32,000 nt of DNA from Synechococcus sp. A15-24. GTDB lineage: Bacteria; Cyanobacteriota; Cyanobacteriia; PCC-6307; Cyanobiaceae. Shown here piece after piece: positions 1 through 30,810 of this stretch. The translations under genes and the position numbers were made by a program. The stretch spans positions 1,230,001-1,262,000 of the forward strand of contig NZ_CP047960.1 of assembly GCF_014280195.1 (NCBI RefSeq). The letters run 5' to 3'. Positions within the stretch are counted from its first letter, which is position 1. Every line of letters starts with the position of its first letter. A model generated the notes under the pieces. It searched no databases. It worked only from the letters and a program-made list of their open reading frames with translations, and had not been told where the DNA came from.

Positions 1-1
1 T

Positions 2-178
2 AACGCAGGCGAGCGAGAACCCGATAACCCTGTTTTGAACCCAATGAAGAAACACACCGCACGGCGTGCCGCAAACTTGACTGCGCGCAAGAGCGCAACC
101 CCGAAGCACCCTCCTTCCAACCAGCTCAAAACCTCTCCCCAACTCATCAGCTGGGAAGAGGTCATCGGCAAGCGCTGA
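2..178 (+). CDS. 3' end of a basic hypothetical protein (open to the window edge), or a 44-aa ORF starting at ATG 44
   Basis: The frame is open from position 2 to TGA 176-178 (..MKKHTARRAANLTARKSATPKHPPSNQLKTSPQLISWEEVIGKR). No family recognised. Confidence 0.3.
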   Translation, partial: NAGEREPDNPVLNPMKKHTARRAANLTARKSATPKHPPSNQLKTSPQLISWEEVIGKR

Positions 179-190
179 ACCGAGCTGAAA

Positions 191-448
191 TCAGCGGCGG
201 GGTTCGGCCTGACGAACTGTGATCCCGCGTCCCATCCACTCGACGTCCTGCAGGTCGTCGATGGCGGACTTTTCATCCGCAGCATTGGCAAGGTCGACAA
301 AGGCAAAGCCACGCTTTCGGCCGGTCTCCCGATCCAAAGGCAGCGAACACTTGCTGACCTCGCCGTACTGGCTGAACAGATGAACGAGGTCTTCTCTCTC
401 AGCGTCCCAGGAGAGATTGCCAATGAAAATCGTCAAAAAAAAGGCCAA
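191..448 (-). CDS. RRM-type RNA-binding protein (cyanobacterial Rbp family)
   Basis: Single RRM with RNP2 IFIGNL and RNP1 RGFAFVDL. The track start is TTG 448. An in-frame TTG at 436 (MTIFIGNLS) is the more typical N-terminus. Confidence 0.9.
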   Translation of the reverse strand: MAFFLTIFIGNLSWDAEREDLVHLFSQYGEVSKCSLPLDRETGRKRGFAFVDLANAADEKSAIDDLQDVEWMGRGITVRQAEPRR

Positions 449-494
449 AACCGTACTAACTCACCATCGCATACAGCCGTACCTTGAATGCCAC

Positions 495-686
495 TCATCC
501 AGCAGGCTCAGTAGGCGGTGGCAGTGACAGAACGAATGTCAGCAGAGCTGAAGCAAGACGTGCGTCGCCCTCAAGTACTAAGAGACGGTGCACGTCCATC
601 GCTTGACCAAGGTCCGGCGTCGCCGATCCGTTGATCAGACCACGCGCTTTGCTGCGGGCGATCACGTGCTGGAGCGACATGGTCAT
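495..686 (-). CDS. hypothetical small protein (63 aa), uncertain
   Basis: This is the part of the 163-aa track ORF that lies outside the 463-bp repeat, with ATG at 684-686 (MTMSLQHVIARSKARGLINGSATPDLGQ..). No family recognised. Confidence 0.25.
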   Translation of the reverse strand: MTMSLQHVIARSKARGLINGSATPDLGQAMDVHRLLVLEGDARLASALLTFVLSLPPPTEPAG

Positions 687-766
687 GACTCCAAGCTGGC
701 TTATCTGAAACCAAAGCCCTTCAGGTCTTCCACATTGCAGCGGTATTGGGCCAAAACCAGGCATGG

Positions 767-1229
767 GCACGCCATTTCCAACATCGGTGGGCGCTGCCCC
801 AGAGGCAATGCGCCTTAACACCGATTGCCGGATGTGCTCCACGCGACCAACACTGTGGTCATCGAGATCGGAGGTGCCCATGACGGCCGACACTCCACCT
901 GAGCAACACCCAGAAGCTGCCTGACTGACTCGGCTCCTGCTCCAACAGTTTCCACACATCCGTAAGGCTCGTCCTTTGGCAGGCATTCCTTGAGCGCCAC
1001 GTCAATCGACACTCCATTGCACCGTCCTCAGGTGCCCAGGAGTCCACAAGCCTTCACAACTGGACCCCATGGCCCCAGGCGCCATCCAGCCAGACGCTTC
1101 GACCGTTTCTTCAGTCCCTTTGCTTGAGGTTCCAACTCACTGAAGCATTACTGATCAGGTCGATTGCTATGCACAAACGAGCGAGATAGGCCGTCCTTCC
1201 CATCCGGGAGGGGCGGCCTTCCCCTTGTT
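767..1229. repeat. 463-bp direct repeat, copy 1 (non-coding)
   Basis: Aligns without gaps to 4909-5371 (offset 4142) with only 5 mismatches. Ends in a GC-rich hairpin at 1189-1218. Confidence 0.95.
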
Positions 1230-1318
1230 GGGTGCATGGATCAAATCAATAGAAGGCCTGTTGTTTGGCGCTTTTCGATCCTTGGACTGTTCACCCTGGA
1301 TGTAGTTGCAGCGAAGCC

Positions 1319-1513
1319 ATGGGTGGATTGAGTGGCACCAAATCGGACGACTTCATCAACGCCGCCAAAGCACGTGCTGAGGCCGCCATTCAAGACAACC
1401 AGCCAAAGCTGACCAAACTGGAAAAGGCTTTCCGCCATGCCGCCCTGCGGCGCCGGGCCCAGGATGCCCGCAGGGCTGCTGACGACCATCGCGCCAAACC
1501 CAACACTCCATAA
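1319..1513 (+). CDS. hypothetical small protein (64 aa)
   Basis: ATG 1319 within track ORF 1265-1513 (MGGLSGTKSDDFINAAKARAEAAIQDNQPKLTKLEKAF..). Helical and charged, with G/C-rich third codon positions. Confidence 0.45.
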   Translation: MGGLSGTKSDDFINAAKARAEAAIQDNQPKLTKLEKAFRHAALRRRAQDARRAADDHRAKPNTP

Positions 1514-1604
1514 CAGATCAGAGCGACATCCGCAGGCCCTGAGCCCAATCCAGCGTGAACTCGAAACATAGTGTTACGGTTCGAAGGCTCTGTGTCCCCT
1601 GCGG

Positions 1605-2561
1605 ATGTTCACGCTCGACAAAGCTCGTCAGATCTTCCCAGACACGTTGAGCGCTGGTGCAGTCCCGGCCATCACAGCCCGCTTCAAGCTGCTGAGCGCA
1701 GAGGACCAGTTGGCACTTATCTGGTTTGCCTATCTGGAAATGGGGAAGACCATCACCGTGGCGGCACCGGGTGCGGCCCGCATGGCGCTGGCACAGCCGA
1801 CGATGGATGAAATTCTGGCGATGAGCTTTGACGAGCAGACCAAGGTGATGTGCGATTTGGCTTCCAAGATCAACAGCCCGATTTCGGCGCGCTACGCCTA
1901 CTGGTCGGTGAACGTGAAGCTGTGCTTCTGGTACGAGCTGGGCGAATTCATGCGCCAGGGCAAGGTGGCTCCGATTCCTCAGGGGTACAGGTTGTCCGCA
2001 AACGCCAACTCGGTGCTGGAGGCCGTCAAGAAAGTTGAGCAGGGCCAACAGATCACCCTGCTGCGCAACTTCGTGGTCGACATGGGCTACGACCCCGATG
2101 TGGACGACAGCCAGGTGGTCACCGAGCCGATCGTGGCTCCGACACCGGTTGATCAACGCGAGGAGATTCTGATCCCCGGCGTGCTGAATCAGACCATCCT
2201 CAGCTACATGCAGCTGCTCAATGCCAACGACTTTGATCAGCTGATCGATCTGTTTCTCAACGATGGTGCTCTGCAGCCCCCGTTCCAGCGTCCCATTGTC
2301 GGCCGCGACGCCATCCAGAAATTCTTCAAGCGGGATTGTCAGAACCTGAAGTTGATGCCCCAGGGCGGTTATGGCGAGCCGACCGAAGGTGGCTTCAATC
2401 AGATCAAGGTCACCGGCAAGGTGCAGACCCCCTGGTTCGGTCGTGAGGTGGGCATGAACGTGGCTTGGCGCTTCCTTCTGGATGAAAACGACAAAATCTA
2501 TTTCGTGGCCATCGACTTGCTGGCATCTCCAGCCGAGTTGCTCAAGCTGGGTGGCAAATGA
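1605..2561 (+). CDS. ocp: orange carotenoid protein (OCP)
   Basis: 318 aa, collinear with Synechocystis OCP: FPDTL.., LALIWFAYLEMGKTITVAAPGAA, YRLSANANSVLE. The NTF2-like C-domain shows GALQPPFQRPIVG, KVTGKVQTPWFG and FVAIDLLASP. Confidence 0.97.
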   Translation: MFTLDKARQIFPDTLSAGAVPAITARFKLLSAEDQLALIWFAYLEMGKTITVAAPGAARMALAQPTMDEILAMSFDEQTKVMCDLASKINSPISARYAYWSVNVKLCFWYELGEFMRQGKVAPIPQGYRLSANANSVLEAVKKVEQGQQITLLRNFVVDMGYDPDVDDSQVVTEPIVAPTPVDQREEILIPGVLNQTILSYMQLLNANDFDQLIDLFLNDGALQPPFQRPIVGRDAIQKFFKRDCQNLKLMPQGGYGEPTEGGFNQIKVTGKVQTPWFGREVGMNVAWRFLLDENDKIYFVAIDLLASPAELLKLGGK

Positions 2562-3285
2562 GTTCAGCCCTCAGGCCCGCAAAGGGTTGGTTCTGGCTGG
2601 TCTGATTGGATCCGCCTGGCTGCTCTCCCTGGGCCTGAGCTACACCCTGCCACTCGATCAGACGCCTGGGCTGTTGATTGGCAGCTTGATTCTGCTGAGG
2701 GCCTTTCTGCATACCGGGCTGTTCATCGTTGCCCACGATTCCATGCACGCCAGTCTTGTTCCGGGTCATCCCGGATTGAACAGCTGGATCGGCAAAGTTT
2801 GTTTAATGATGTATGCAGGCTTGTCTTATGAGCGTTGTTCCCGCAACCACATACGTCATCACCTGGCACCGGAAACGTTCCAGGATCCTGACTACCAATG
2901 TTGCACGAAAAACAACATCCTGGATTGGTATGTTCACTTTATGGGCAACTATCTGGGTGGCCAACAACTGTTGAATTTAAGTTTTCTTTGGCTGACACTT
3001 GTCATTCTCAACGGTTCTGATCTCCCTGTTCAGATCATGCATCTGCTGTTGTTCAGCGTTCTGCCACTGATCATCAGTTCCTGTCAATTGTTTCTAGTGG
3101 GAACCTGGTTACCCCACCGACGTGGGGCCACGACACGACCGGGCGTGACAACGCGCAGCCTGGCCTTGCATCCAGCACTATCTTTCGCAGCTTGTTACCA
3201 CTTTGGCTATCATCGCGAACATCATGAATCGCCTTCCACTCCCTGGTTTCAGCTGCCACAACTCCGAAGTGAATCATTCATTTGA
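2551..3285 (+). CDS. crtW: beta-carotene ketolase CrtW
   Basis: His boxes AHDSMH, HIRHH and HREHH, plus hydrophobic segments. The track ORF begins inside ocp. GTG 2551 (overlapping the ocp stop) is the first plausible start, so the exact start is uncertain. Confidence 0.9.
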   Translation: MANEFSPQARKGLVLAGLIGSAWLLSLGLSYTLPLDQTPGLLIGSLILLRAFLHTGLFIVAHDSMHASLVPGHPGLNSWIGKVCLMMYAGLSYERCSRNHIRHHLAPETFQDPDYQCCTKNNILDWYVHFMGNYLGGQQLLNLSFLWLTLVILNGSDLPVQIMHLLLFSVLPLIISSCQLFLVGTWLPHRRGATTRPGVTTRSLALHPALSFAACYHFGYHREHHESPSTPWFQLPQLRSESFI

Positions 3286-3330
3286 CCATTTCTGACCAAC
3301 GCTGATTTCCTCCTCACCGCTTTCCCCTTC

Positions 3331-3651
3331 ATGTCGGCAACAGACTGGACATCCGAAGAACAGGCCGTTGCCCGCACTGCCTTCGAACTTGGCAAACATC
3401 GTTCAATCACGGCTTTGATTTCAACTCTGCAGGAGCAATCCAGCAACCTTGATACACCGGAATCGGTCTGGAAGCTGCATGACCACCTCAGCACTGAGCG
3501 CTATCTGTATGAAGGGCGCGCTGAGTTTGACGAAGGTAATGTGTTGTTCGTGTTAGCCGACATGATCAAACAACGTTTGATCGCTTTGGATGATCTGCAA
3601 GGGTTGGATCAAACTAAAGTGATCAAAGTCAAAGCGATGTCGATGTTCTGA
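3331..3651 (+). CDS. frp: fluorescence recovery protein (FRP)
   Basis: 106 aa and helical. Matches the FRP pattern (W..EE...A...F, WKLHDHLS, EGRAEFDE) and sits in the canonical ocp-crtW-frp position. Confidence 0.9.
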   Translation: MSATDWTSEEQAVARTAFELGKHRSITALISTLQEQSSNLDTPESVWKLHDHLSTERYLYEGRAEFDEGNVLFVLADMIKQRLIALDDLQGLDQTKVIKVKAMSMF

Positions 3652-3689
3652 TCGACACGCAGAGATGTGATCAGAACCACCAGGCAACT

Positions 3690-4895
3690 TCAACGCAGTG
3701 AGCGTCCCTTCCAGGTCCACCCCTGACCGGTGAAGGTCCGCCAAACCGACACGGGCCCGATGGCGCCAACAATCAACCCTCCGGCCCCCATCAGCCACCA
3801 GTAATCGATGGGTAGTTGAAATTCCCGTCTGGTCCACAGACGCAGGATGAACTGCTGAAGAACTGCGACTGTGGCGGCAGCCAGCAGAGCCAGCCACCAC
3901 CGCTGAGCGATCGGGAGAACCAACAACAATCCAGTCGAAACTGGAATCAGCAACCAGGGCAGGCTGAACATCAGCACCACCACGCCAGCAGCAGCCAGTC
4001 CTTTGCCGGGATCGCGATCCAGTCCAAGGCACCAGTTTTTGGTCCAGCCTTCCCACAACGCGGCCAGATCGGCGTACATACGCAGATCAACGGCATCAAG
4101 ACCCAGCAGGTAGCGCAAGCGATAACCGCCCGTCTTGATCCTGCGCGCCAATGCCAGATCCTCCACCACCTCTGCCGCCAGAGCACGGTGCCCACCGATC
4201 CGCTCATAAACACTGCGGCGGATGAGCATGAACGGTCCCGCAGCAAAGGCAACGTCGGAGTCGGGATCATTGGCGGCCTCGATCGGAAAACCCAGCCCCA
4301 GCAGGCTGGCCATGATCGGTTGCACCATCCATTCGGCCAAGCAGCCACAGGTGAGTCGCGGCGCCAGGCTCAACAGATCCGCCTGATCCGCGATCGCCTG
4401 AGCCAGTGCTCGTGGGATGGCATCGGCTTGAAGCTGCACATCGGCATCGATGAACAGCACCCAGTCGCTGCGCACCTGCTCCATGGCCCGGGTGCACGCC
4501 CAGTTCTTGCCCACCCAGCGTTCAGAGGCCGGACGGGGACCTGCCGGCAGCACACTGAACCCCGCCGTGGACTGCGGGTGGCGGGCAGCACAGGCCACCG
4601 CCAGCTCCGCTGTGGCATCGGTTGAGTCGTCATCCACCACCAACACCTGCCACTCCACGCAGGGGGGCTGGCCCTTGAGCACGCTGGCCAGGCAAGCGCC
4701 GATGTTGCCGGCTTCGTTGTAGGCCGGAATCACCACCGTGAGGGAGGTCCGGGGCACAGGCGTGTCCGCCGCAGCCTGCAACTGCGGCGCCACTGCGAAC
4801 ACCCGCCAGAGACCGAGCTGCAGGATCAACAGGCCAATGCAGGAGGCCATGGCGGTGGCCAGCAACCCCAGCGCAACGATCACCAGTGGATCCAA
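3690..4895 (-). CDS. family 2 glycosyltransferase, membrane-anchored (CrtQ/HpnB-like architecture)
   Basis: 401 aa with an N-terminal TM helix. Motifs VVIPAYNE, VVDDDSTD, FIDAD and WVGKNWA, plus C-terminal TM helices. Confidence 0.9.
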   Translation of the reverse strand: MDPLVIVALGLLATAMASCIGLLILQLGLWRVFAVAPQLQAAADTPVPRTSLTVVIPAYNEAGNIGACLASVLKGQPPCVEWQVLVVDDDSTDATAELAVACAARHPQSTAGFSVLPAGPRPASERWVGKNWACTRAMEQVRSDWVLFIDADVQLQADAIPRALAQAIADQADLLSLAPRLTCGCLAEWMVQPIMASLLGLGFPIEAANDPDSDVAFAAGPFMLIRRSVYERIGGHRALAAEVVEDLALARRIKTGGYRLRYLLGLDAVDLRMYADLAALWEGWTKNWCLGLDRDPGKGLAAAGVVVLMFSLPWLLIPVSTGLLLVLPIAQRWWLALLAAATVAVLQQFILRLWTRREFQLPIDYWWLMGAGGLIVGAIGPVSVWRTFTGQGWTWKGRSLR

Positions 4896-4908
4896 AGGCT
4901 GTCGGCAA

Positions 4909-5371
4909 GCACGCCATTCCCAACATCGGTGGGCGCTGCCCCAGAGGCAATGCGCCTTAACACCGATTGCCGGATGTGCTCCACGCGACCAACACTGTGG
5001 TCATCGAGATCGGAGGTGCCCATGACGGCCGACACTCCACCTGAGCAACACCCAGAAGCTGCCTGACTGACTCGGCTCCTGCTCCAACAGTTTCCACCCA
5101 TCCGTAAGGCTCGTCCTTTGGCAGGCTTTCCTTGAGCGCCACGTCAATCGACACTCCATTGCACCGTCTTCAGGTGCCCAGGAGTCCACAAGCCTTCACA
5201 ACTGGACCCCATGGCCCCAGGCGCCATCCAGCCAGACGCTTCGACCGTTTCTTCAGTCCCTTTGCTTGAGGTTCCAACTCCCTGAAGCATTACTGATCAG
5301 GTCGATTGCTATGCACAAACGAGCGAGATAGGCCGTCCTTCCCATCCGGGAGGGGCGGCCTTCCCCTTGTT
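4909..5371. repeat. 463-bp direct repeat, copy 2 (non-coding)
   Basis: Same as 767-1229. Mismatches at 4919, 5098, 5127, 5169 and 5281. Hairpin at 5331-5360. Starts 13 nt from the GT2 start codon. Confidence 0.95.
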
Positions 5372-5575: not shown

Positions 5576-5740
5576 ATGACATCAGCCTCTGTGGTGACCA
5601 CGCGCGATGGAGACACCGTGCGCATGTTTCAGGGCGTGGATGGACCGTTTTACCGCGCCTGCAACGGCAACCGCTGCGTGAACTGCCGAGATCTGGTGAT
5701 CGCCCTCGAGCATCTCAAGGTCTGGCGTCAGAAGCTCTGA
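5576..5740 (+). CDS. hypothetical small protein (54 aa)
   Basis: Below the track's 60-aa cutoff. ATG preceded by GGAG (MTSASVVTTRDGDTVRMFQGVDGPFYRACNGNRCVNCRDLVIALEHLKVWRQKL). G/C-rich third positions. The overlapping track ORF is Arg-rich and off-frame. Confidence 0.5.
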   Translation: MTSASVVTTRDGDTVRMFQGVDGPFYRACNGNRCVNCRDLVIALEHLKVWRQKL

Positions 5741-5769: not shown

Positions 5770-6006
5770 TTACTTCTGGCGCTTAAAGGTGTAGCAACCA
5801 CCGTGGTAACCGGTGAAGGGCTGGGCATAGGTGGTGAGCTCCCAGCCCTGTTCCCCCAGCTCATTCATCAACCCCACCAAGGTCACATCACGCTGGGGGT
5901 GGCTGCGGGAAATGATCTGACGATCATCCAGCCACAACTCTTCGATCTCACCGGTCCACGACTTACCGCGGGGCACAAAGCGGAGCTGGGTGTATTCCCA
6001 CTTCAT
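5770..6006 (-). CDS. DUF4177-like small protein
   Basis: Internal ATG 6004-6006 of the track ORF. Shows the MKWEYTQL.. start, ..LMNELGEQGWELT.. and ..FKRQK, the pattern typical of DUF4177. Confidence 0.7.
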   Translation of the reverse strand: MKWEYTQLRFVPRGKSWTGEIEELWLDDRQIISRSHPQRDVTLVGLMNELGEQGWELTTYAQPFTGYHGGCYTFKRQK

Positions 6007-23095: not shown

Positions 23096-23237
23096 CGTCT
23101 TCAGACGGGAATTTCTTCAACCTAGCCACGCAAATCCAACGTAAATGTGACGACTCAAACCAAAGCATTCGTCATGGCGCCCTGTCAGAGCTGGACAACG
23201 CGATACCGGGGGACTAAGACAGAAATGTCGTCACCAC

Positions 23238-23284
23238 GACACAGGCCATGGAACGGGGGTCTGGGCTTGCTTCCCTTGGATGCG
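23238..23284 (+). promoter_or_regulatory. probable glutamine-II riboswitch (Downstream-peptide motif), copy A
   Basis: The block AGGCCATGGAACGGGGgtCTGgGCTTGCTTC matches 28 of 31 nt with the copy at 29841-29871. Stem 23240-23245 pairs with 23260-23265. Lies immediately 5' of a short YRG-motif ORF. Confidence 0.6.
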
Positions 23285-29290: not shown

Positions 29291-29837
29291 TGAACTGAGA
29301 ATGAGCACTCACACCGTAAGGACGGTGCTGAATGGCGCAGCCAACGTCACCATCCGTAAGCATCGATGCACACAGGTATCAGCCAAAAGTGTTCATCTGA
29401 TCATGATCTTCAGAGAATCTTTGCGTTCTCATCCTTCTGAAGAGGTCGTCTGATCCTTCATTTGGTCGCCATCGCAGCAGTGCTGGGGGTGCACGGAGGA
29501 GGACATTGTTGAAATCATTCCACTTGATCAATGCCCCTCAACCCTGTCGTGAAGCTGTTGAAATCAACATCGACAGTCAAATCAAACGCAGACAAAACAA
29601 AACCAGCTCTACTTCCACGACCTCTTCGACCGGATCCAATTCGTCCACGAAAACAATCCATCGAAACCAGCTGGGACGAACTCCGGCAGGAATACTCGGG
29701 GCTCGGTTGAGGCGGTTTCCGCAAATTTCTCTGTTGTGTAGCGGCATGAACGACAGAACCCTGGACAGAGCCTGTAGAACATTGATGTAGCAACAGCTAC
29801 AACACGTTCACCTCACCACCGGTGAGGCGCAGTTCGA

Positions 29838-29883
29838 CTCAGGCCATGGAACGGGGACCTGAGCTTGCTTCGAGGAACCCATC
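29838..29883 (+). promoter_or_regulatory. probable glutamine-II riboswitch (Downstream-peptide motif), copy B
   Basis: 6-bp stem CTCAGG (29838-29843) pairs with CCTGAG (29858-29863), enclosing CCATGGAACGGGGA. This is followed by GCTTGCTTC, GAGGAA (SD-like) and ATG 29884. Confidence 0.65.
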
Positions 29884-30704: not shown

Positions 30705-30810
30705 GGGCGGAGAAACCTAGGGTTCCGATCCCATCAGGGATGTCTGGTCCAAGAGGTTTCGGTCGGTTCTGCCGGCTGCACGGAGGGACAAAAGCCCGGG
30801 AGACCGCAAC
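30705..30810 (+). promoter_or_regulatory. guanidine-I riboswitch (ykkC-yxkD motif)
   Basis: The conserved blocks appear in the correct order: CCTAGGGTTCCG, GGTCCAAGAG and ACGGAGGGACAAAAGCCCGGGAGA. The element ends about 20 nt before the ureohydrolase ATG. Confidence 0.85.

Follow-up and report, generated by a model that had tools for sequence, protein, structure and literature searches.

Twin, probable Yfr103 genes and a separately inserted OCP operon in WH8102-type marine Synechococcus

Genomic islands and tycheposons of Prochlorococcus and Synechococcus, reportedly described by Hackl et al. in 2023, are said to be flanked by repeated fragments of tRNA genes, and Voigt et al. in 2014 are said to have described Yfr103, a non-coding RNA (ncRNA) family of marine picocyanobacteria. 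RecA-dependent gene conversion homogenises direct paralogs of several hundred bp, and reciprocal deletion is possible from the same substrates. Here we analyse a stretch of 32,000 nucleotides from Synechococcus sp. A15-24 (contig NZ_CP047960.1, positions 1,230,001 to 1,262,000; hereafter the window), near one end of which two almost identical 463-bp direct repeats bracket the photoprotection operon ocp-crtW-frp. We judge it likely, taking the explanation as a whole, that the repeats are twin and probable Yfr103 genes, homogenised by conversion, which bracket a separately inserted OCP operon together with two resident genes. According to this explanation, copy 2 would stand at an old position upstream of a core GT2 glycosyltransferase gene, and copy 1 would be an extra copy between an RRM gene and a small open reading frame (ORF), confined to WH8102-type clade III. 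The copies swap sequence by gene conversion, staying ~99% identical in each genome while same-position copies drift between strains, and ocp-crtW-frp is a separate insertion that divides the small ORF from GT2. Paralogous small RNA (sRNA) genes under concerted evolution are a known kind of feature; none of the papers retrieved mentions this arrangement around the OCP operon.

Resemblance to tycheposons lies in the presence of flexible genes between direct repeats derived from a structured-RNA gene. Unlike tycheposons, the locus has no tyrosine recombinase or other integrase, contains two full functional gene copies rather than a gene and a partial att copy, and brackets genes that were not acquired together. 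It is also comparable to rrn operons, tufA/tufB and insertion sequence (IS) copies, as dispersed paralogs with concerted evolution and potential deletion of the interval between them; it differs from these pairs in that the unit is a 463-bp sRNA gene and that the interval, only 3.7 kb long, consists of an accessory photoprotection operon and a core gene.

The published account of Yfr103 provides the closest comparison for the repeat unit itself. Synechococcus CC9605 carries seven Yfr103 paralogs of 290-328 nt, which together account for 55% of CC9605-mapped mdRNA-seq reads (Hou et al. 2016, PMC5069720). Homologs occur in WH8102, WH7803 and others; the structure of the RNA is strongly conserved, and the promoters combine a -10 element with an imperfect palindrome, likewise conserved, at approximately -30 to -59 (PMC5069720). 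Yfr103 is reportedly the top-abundance picocyanobacterial transcript in several natural communities. The CC9605 loci Yfr103a to Yfr103g are located in NC_007516 at 1038850, 523173-523498, 745088, 2396025-2396316, 520334-520624, 946997 and 1437033, respectively (PMC5069720, Table S2). According to the same table, Yfr103e and Yfr103b (520334-523498) form a same-strand pair ~2.8 kb apart, so direct pairs at short distance may be found repeatedly in the family. In the literature found, neither a link with the OCP operon, nor concerted evolution of a pair, nor repeat-mediated deletion is mentioned for Yfr103.

The repeat unit as a structured RNA gene

Positions 767-1229 (copy 1) and 4909-5371 (copy 2), both on the + strand, are direct repeats of 463 bp that align without indels, 4142 nt apart throughout, and differ by exactly five substitutions (positions 777, 956, 985, 1027 and 1139 of the window; identity 98.9%). 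A match of this length and identity cannot have arisen by chance. The borders are sharp, similarity dropping to background directly outside both ends of both copies. The coordinates, offset and substitutions recorded in a first-pass annotation of the window were thus all reproduced, as was its statement that the sequences beyond the borders are unrelated.

Exact look-ups of the RRM protein and a 54-aa protein encoded on either side of the pair revealed the two-copy layout, at the same positions, in 13 further related clade III assemblies or contigs. These comprise WH8102 (BX548020; L098), WH8103 (LN847356), RS9915 (CP047934), CP047955, CP047956, CP047947, RHLE01000002, a 750-kb metagenome contig (L100), four draft genome assemblies (L102 and L105-L107) and a metagenome scaffold (L104). 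In WH8102 the pair corresponds to 1353009-1353471 and 1357149-1357611 of BX548020. All are ~96% identical to the window and collinear with it over more than 10 kb; the window therefore represents a WH8102-type clade III strain.

Each repeat is a complete ncRNA gene, comprising an imperfect palindrome, a -10-like box, a structured RNA of ~365 nt and a terminator. Full-length relatives with 74-90% identity, always having the same two ends, were identified with nhmmer in many marine Synechococcus loci (L001, L003, L009, L011, L015, L017, L021, L023, L024, L025, L027, L032, L114 and L115). The family is multi-copy, with two members in WH8102 (L098), two in the WH7803 locus (L024) and three in WH8017 (L025), in each case within ~20 kb. 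In an alignment of 15 paralogous copies of the unit, the palindrome GGCAATGCGCCTTAACACCGATTGCC (804..829, + strand; alignment columns 39-64) is nearly invariant and represents a putative transcription-factor site, ~-32 to -57 from the predicted start. Downstream lies the -10-like hexamer AACACT (849..854, +; pattern nAnAnT), whose positions 2, 4 and 6 are invariant in the 15 paralogs, and transcription would begin near A861, ~7 nt past this box. The predicted RNA (861..1229, +) ends in an intrinsic terminator, formed by a strong hairpin (1188-1219) and a tail; the hairpin stem varies through compensatory changes in the alignment. The corresponding parts of copy 2, on the same strand, are the palindrome at 4946-4971, a predicted start at ~5003 and the terminator at 5330-5361.

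The consensus predicted by RNAalifold consists of nested long-range helices in which 96.9% of base-pair cells are paired. Changes on both sides were observed at 11 pairs, versus 3-5 in controls with slid partners, and G-U pairs occur solely when the + strand is taken as the RNA. Folded as a single sequence, the unit scored better than 100 of 100 shuffles (z = -2.75). Long conserved blocks in the alignment are broken by indels of 1-2 nt, a pattern incompatible with a coding role. Protein coding was further rejected on inspection of the reading frames, all of which are interrupted within the unit; among the ORFs that overlap the repeats, the longest lack a Pfam match. Since the genes downstream differ at every copy, the unit is a free-standing RNA gene rather than a cis-regulatory leader. 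A phage origin was also discarded, there being no match in IMG/VR (motif search) or among GenBank phages (blastn), and no tRNA or tmRNA genes were found.

Inside the RNA, a 14-codon mini-ORF, MTADTPPEQHPEAA, occurs at 880-924 and 5022-5066 (+ strand), preceded by GGAGG 6 nt upstream. It begins with ATG or GTG in 15 of 15 paralogs and has a variable middle without indels; in L001 the start is GTG and the stop is earlier, and part of the mini-ORF also lies in a predicted helix. A dual function of the RNA is conceivable. Two further copies of the element depart from the standard layout. The one upstream of GT2 in metagenome scaffold L090 (3452-4058) carries an internal duplication of ~59 nt, in which model positions 141-199 occur twice. 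In L009 (11815-12381), a contig of a MED650 metagenome-assembled genome that contains Ns, an element whose first 64 nt are identical to window copy 1 lies upstream of the small ORF, and the contig then terminates in a second 5' end of GT2, an arrangement representing either a chimeric assembly or a tandem duplication.

The family defined by these units is very probably Yfr103. Like Yfr103, it has multiple paralogs in marine Synechococcus, including WH8102 and WH7803, a -10 element accompanied by an imperfect palindrome at the spacing given above, a conserved secondary structure and a size of ~300-370 nt. Predicted lengths fall into three classes of ~306, ~330 and ~365 nt, the first two of which fit the published 291-292 and 326 nt (PMC5069720). 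The clade III version constitutes the third class; unlike Yfr103 as described (290-328 nt), it is predicted to be longer, owing to an extra segment of ~45 nt.

Concerted evolution and independent insertion

Comparison of the 14 two-copy genomes (the window and its 13 relatives) establishes that the paired repeats do not evolve independently. Within a genome, the two copies show 0-8 differences (mean 3.1), and same-position copies in different genomes differ on average at 8.6 (copy 1) or 8.3 (copy 2) sites. A permutation test yielded no value as low as the observed within-genome difference in 10,000 trials, and variants specific to a genome are common to both of its copies. The copies are therefore under concerted evolution by ongoing gene conversion, which accounts for repeats that are ~99% identical while the surrounding DNA is 93-97% identical between strains.

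Between the copies lie 3679 bp containing a small ORF, ocp, crtW, frp and a GT2 glycosyltransferase gene, and no other gene recognisable by Pfam, exactly the content first proposed. The small ORF (1319..1513, +) encodes 64 aa of no known family. Pfam identified ocp (1605-2561, Carot_N and NTF2 domains), crtW (2551-3285) and frp (3331-3651), all on the + strand. GT2 occupies 3690..4895 on the - strand (ORF 3690-4883/4895), and copy 2 lies directly upstream of it and divergent from it. This content had been interpreted as one OCP photoprotection module, an interpretation that the genomic distribution of its parts does not sustain. A scan of species-representative genomes retrieved at least 500 relatives of GT2, spread over Synechococcus, Cyanobium, Vulcanococcus and Prochlorococcus, and its convergent neighbour in many clades is the small ORF, including in many OCP-less genomes (L001, L004, L005, L007, L012, L016, L020 and L090).

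Related loci are organized in four arrangements. In class A, comprising the window and its 13 two-copy relatives, both copies are present with the small ORF, OCP operon and GT2 between them. Class B (A15-28, represented by L086, and L089) has the OCP operon at the same site and copy 2 only. Class C (L001 and L090) retains the RRM gene, small ORF, GT2, copy 2 and right flank, and has neither copy 1 nor the OCP operon; 62 bp occupy the position of copy 1, and 30 bp (documented in L001) replace the operon-bearing segment at 1504..3689 (+) of the window. The single member of class D, contig L088, has one repeat and lacks everything from the small ORF through GT2. Copy 1 is accordingly missing at its position in L001, L090, L086 and L089, and was found only in the WH8102-type clade III lineage; copy 2 is present at its position in the same four, and in a short form in L021, L024 and L025.

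These arrangements document separate indels. The OCP operon is an insertion of 2.2 kb in its own right, placed where the small ORF and GT2 converge, and its presence in class B in the absence of copy 1 demonstrates that operon and copy 1 are two separate differences. The interval does not form a single cassette: both GT2 and its small neighbour are old residents, present throughout (L088 aside), and gain or loss of the cargo as one unit is contradicted by the relatives. The repeat pair brackets the OCP genes through position, not origin. Because relatives lacking copy 1 already carry the operon at this site, the operon probably arrived earlier, and its arrival before that of copy 1 is the most likely order of events. 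Divergence of the OCP genes has kept pace with that of the flanks, so a comparison of the proposed cassette with flanking genes gives no sign of recent transfer.

Elsewhere in marine Synechococcus, the ocp-crtW-frp operon occurs in at least six genomic contexts (L021, L024, L025, L033, L114, L115, L116 and L117). In four of the six, the operon has a yfr103-like element no more than 10 kb away, relative to an expected background of ~6% per 20 kb (seven copies per 2.5 Mb). In WH7803-type genomes the operon flanks GT2 on the opposite side and there, too, lies downstream of a family member, and in WH7803 and WH8017 it again lies between two direct, diverged copies. Other lineages contain it in four further contexts. 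The exact OCP protein of the window has no database record. Two sequences of the same lineage, a draft genome (L105, 4891-5711) and a metagenome contig (L118, 2428-3703), show ocp split into two or three ORFs, reflecting either frameshift pseudogenes or sequencing errors.

Origin of copy 1 and alternative explanations

The duplicated segment corresponds to the base with the conserved gene unit and includes no extra flank. The simplest reading is that copy 1 would have been gained in the ancestor of the WH8102-type lineage by copying, and thereafter subjected to gene conversion. Several points weigh against this reading, or against the broader explanation of which it is part. The hexamer GCATGG occurs on both sides of copy 1, at 761-766 and, offset by 4 nt, at 1234-1239; it may be a target duplication or microhomology from the event that created copy 1, and in combination with the exact unit borders it could indicate a transposition-like or microhomology-mediated event. 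A weak terminator-like match at the copy-1 position in L001 (nhmmer E = 0.04) would be compatible with an old copy 1 that disappeared from other lineages; as that match is non-significant and nothing further was seen, an old remnant of copy 1 in relatives was not accepted. No Rfam 15 family matched the repeat, either when the entire window was scanned at gathering thresholds or when 600-1600 was scanned by E-value. Identity with Yfr103 was judged from published architecture and geometry, and the transcription start and RNA ends are predictions.

Three other explanations of the pair were weighed. That it might be an assembly artefact, such as a duplicated or misjoined contig end, has next to no probability. 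Short-read metagenome assemblies do frequently break at the repeat, with contigs stopping 55-140 nt inside it or exactly at its end, but this is expected of any true repeat that exceeds the assembly k-mer length; recovery of the same pair at the same positions in 13 other assemblies or contigs, including the finished WH8102 genome and the 750-kb L100, refutes an artefact, and the copies differ at five sites in the window and at 0-8 elsewhere. It is also very unlikely that the 463-bp unit is a mobile element inserted at position 1, whether non-autonomous and resembling a miniature inverted-repeat transposable element or an RNA-mediated retro-copy. Such an element would fit the duplication of exactly the conserved unit, the multi-copy family occupying different positions in different lineages, GCATGG as a possible 6-bp target duplication, and a solo 3' fragment beside a full copy in L025. 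Terminal inverted repeats were not found, however, the putative target duplication is out of register and has no counterpart at copy 2, and the element is absent from the phage and viral collections searched (IMG/VR and GenBank phages). Conservation of 74-90% across clades with compensatory pair changes is as for a functional RNA gene, and the promoter region that precedes the predicted start, and that a retro-copy would not retain, is part of the unit. No transposase, integrase or reverse transcriptase was seen within ~10 kb; specifically, integrase and transposase Pfam domains were absent from the genes up to ~10 kb left and right of the locus in six two-copy genomes and A15-28, all seven of them complete or near-complete clade III genomes, which bears out the earlier remark that such enzymes are lacking.

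The remaining alternative, proposed in the first-pass annotation, regards the pair as a scar left when a circle with one repeat and small ORF-ocp-crtW-frp-GT2 integrated by a Campbell-type event, with RecA-mediated loop-out switching the whole module on and off in populations. We consider this improbable. Its integration half fails, since GT2 and the small ORF are ancestral at the site in many OCP-less clades, class C has both of them with one repeat and no OCP, and class B has the OCP operon with one repeat only; the repeat pair is therefore no integration scar. The loop-out half fares better, in that the copies demonstrably recombine, as their within-genome homogenisation attests, and a reciprocal crossover that removes 4142 bp, and with them the small ORF, ocp, crtW, frp and the core GT2 gene, is plausible. 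A search for the empty site in relatives retrieved one candidate, L088 (ERZ802855 NODE_287, 14.4 kb), in which sequence matching window 1-766 is joined through one repeat to sequence matching window 5372 onward, at 96-97% identity. Its repeat has the mosaic form expected of a crossover product, four 5' sites agreeing with copy 1 and four 3' sites with copy 2 of L100, its nearest relative; the 5' alleles are nevertheless common, generic ones that do not discriminate between copies, and the mosaic is not decisive. L088 is moreover a short-read contig with a SPAdes coverage value of 3.1. It could be the exact predicted deletion product, and a path error or mis-join through the repeat would fit as well; we give it at best an even chance, and perhaps somewhat less, of being a real variant. 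A second deletion-type contig was found neither among JGI metagenome contigs searched with a left-flank 26-mer (one normal, four ending inside the repeat) nor in the RRM look-up (five normal, five stopping within the repeat or right at its border), so that four of five and five of ten scanned contigs break there. Look-ups aimed at a separate contig of the interval in the L088 sample matched sequences from other samples. None of the 14 lineage sequences spanning the two repeat positions has lost either copy or the interval, which argues that deletion is rare or counter-selected even if L088 is real. What survives of the mobile-cassette proposal is therefore that the repeats recombine with each other and that L088 has the predicted empty-site structure; the interval as one module and its integration do not.

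Neighbouring genes and biological implications

The genes immediately outside the pair are, on the left, that of the RRM-type RNA-binding protein (191..448, -) and, on the right, the 54-aa ORF (5576-5740, +) and a DUF4177-like ORF of 78 aa (5770-6006, -). The best curated matches of GT2 both fall below family cut-offs: hopene-associated HpnB (171 bits; cut-off 379) and carotenoid 2'-O-glycosyltransferase CruG (138 bits; cut-off 600). By sequence, the protein is a putative terpenoid-type GT2, core in picocyanobacteria. Farther along the window, Rfam models gave three riboswitch matches (23236-23265, 29802-29863 and 30706-30804), one of them to a full Glutamine-II riboswitch (71.9 bits), one to a Guanidine-I riboswitch (87.6 bits) and one, of half length, Glutamine-II-like (22 bits, threshold 33), the last of which is an 89% repeat of part of the full Glutamine-II.

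Returning to the interpretation of the repeats as twin sRNA genes, a broader role of the family may be entertained, tentatively and with low expectation: yfr103 paralogs might serve as portable blocks of homology, at which recombination relocates, deletes or captures small cassettes, including ocp-crtW-frp. This is hinted at by the proximity of the operon to a yfr103-like copy in four of six contexts, by its position between direct copies both in clade III and in WH7803 and WH8017, and by L088. There is also the possibility that a strongly expressed sRNA gene responsive to light and temperature, lying 375 bp upstream of ocp, couples the regulation of the two.

The repeat pair explains the breaks in short-read assemblies at this locus, a matter of consequence when OCP genes are counted in metagenomes, and it offers a clean natural case of concerted evolution in an sRNA gene pair. 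The OCP operon is a flexible trait tied to cold and high-light niches in marine Synechococcus. In the WH8102 lineage, it resides between two copies, actively recombining with each other, of a gene that probably exceeds all other sRNA genes of these cells in expression, and the pair thereby provides a concrete, testable route by which OCP could be lost, at the cost of the core GT2 gene.

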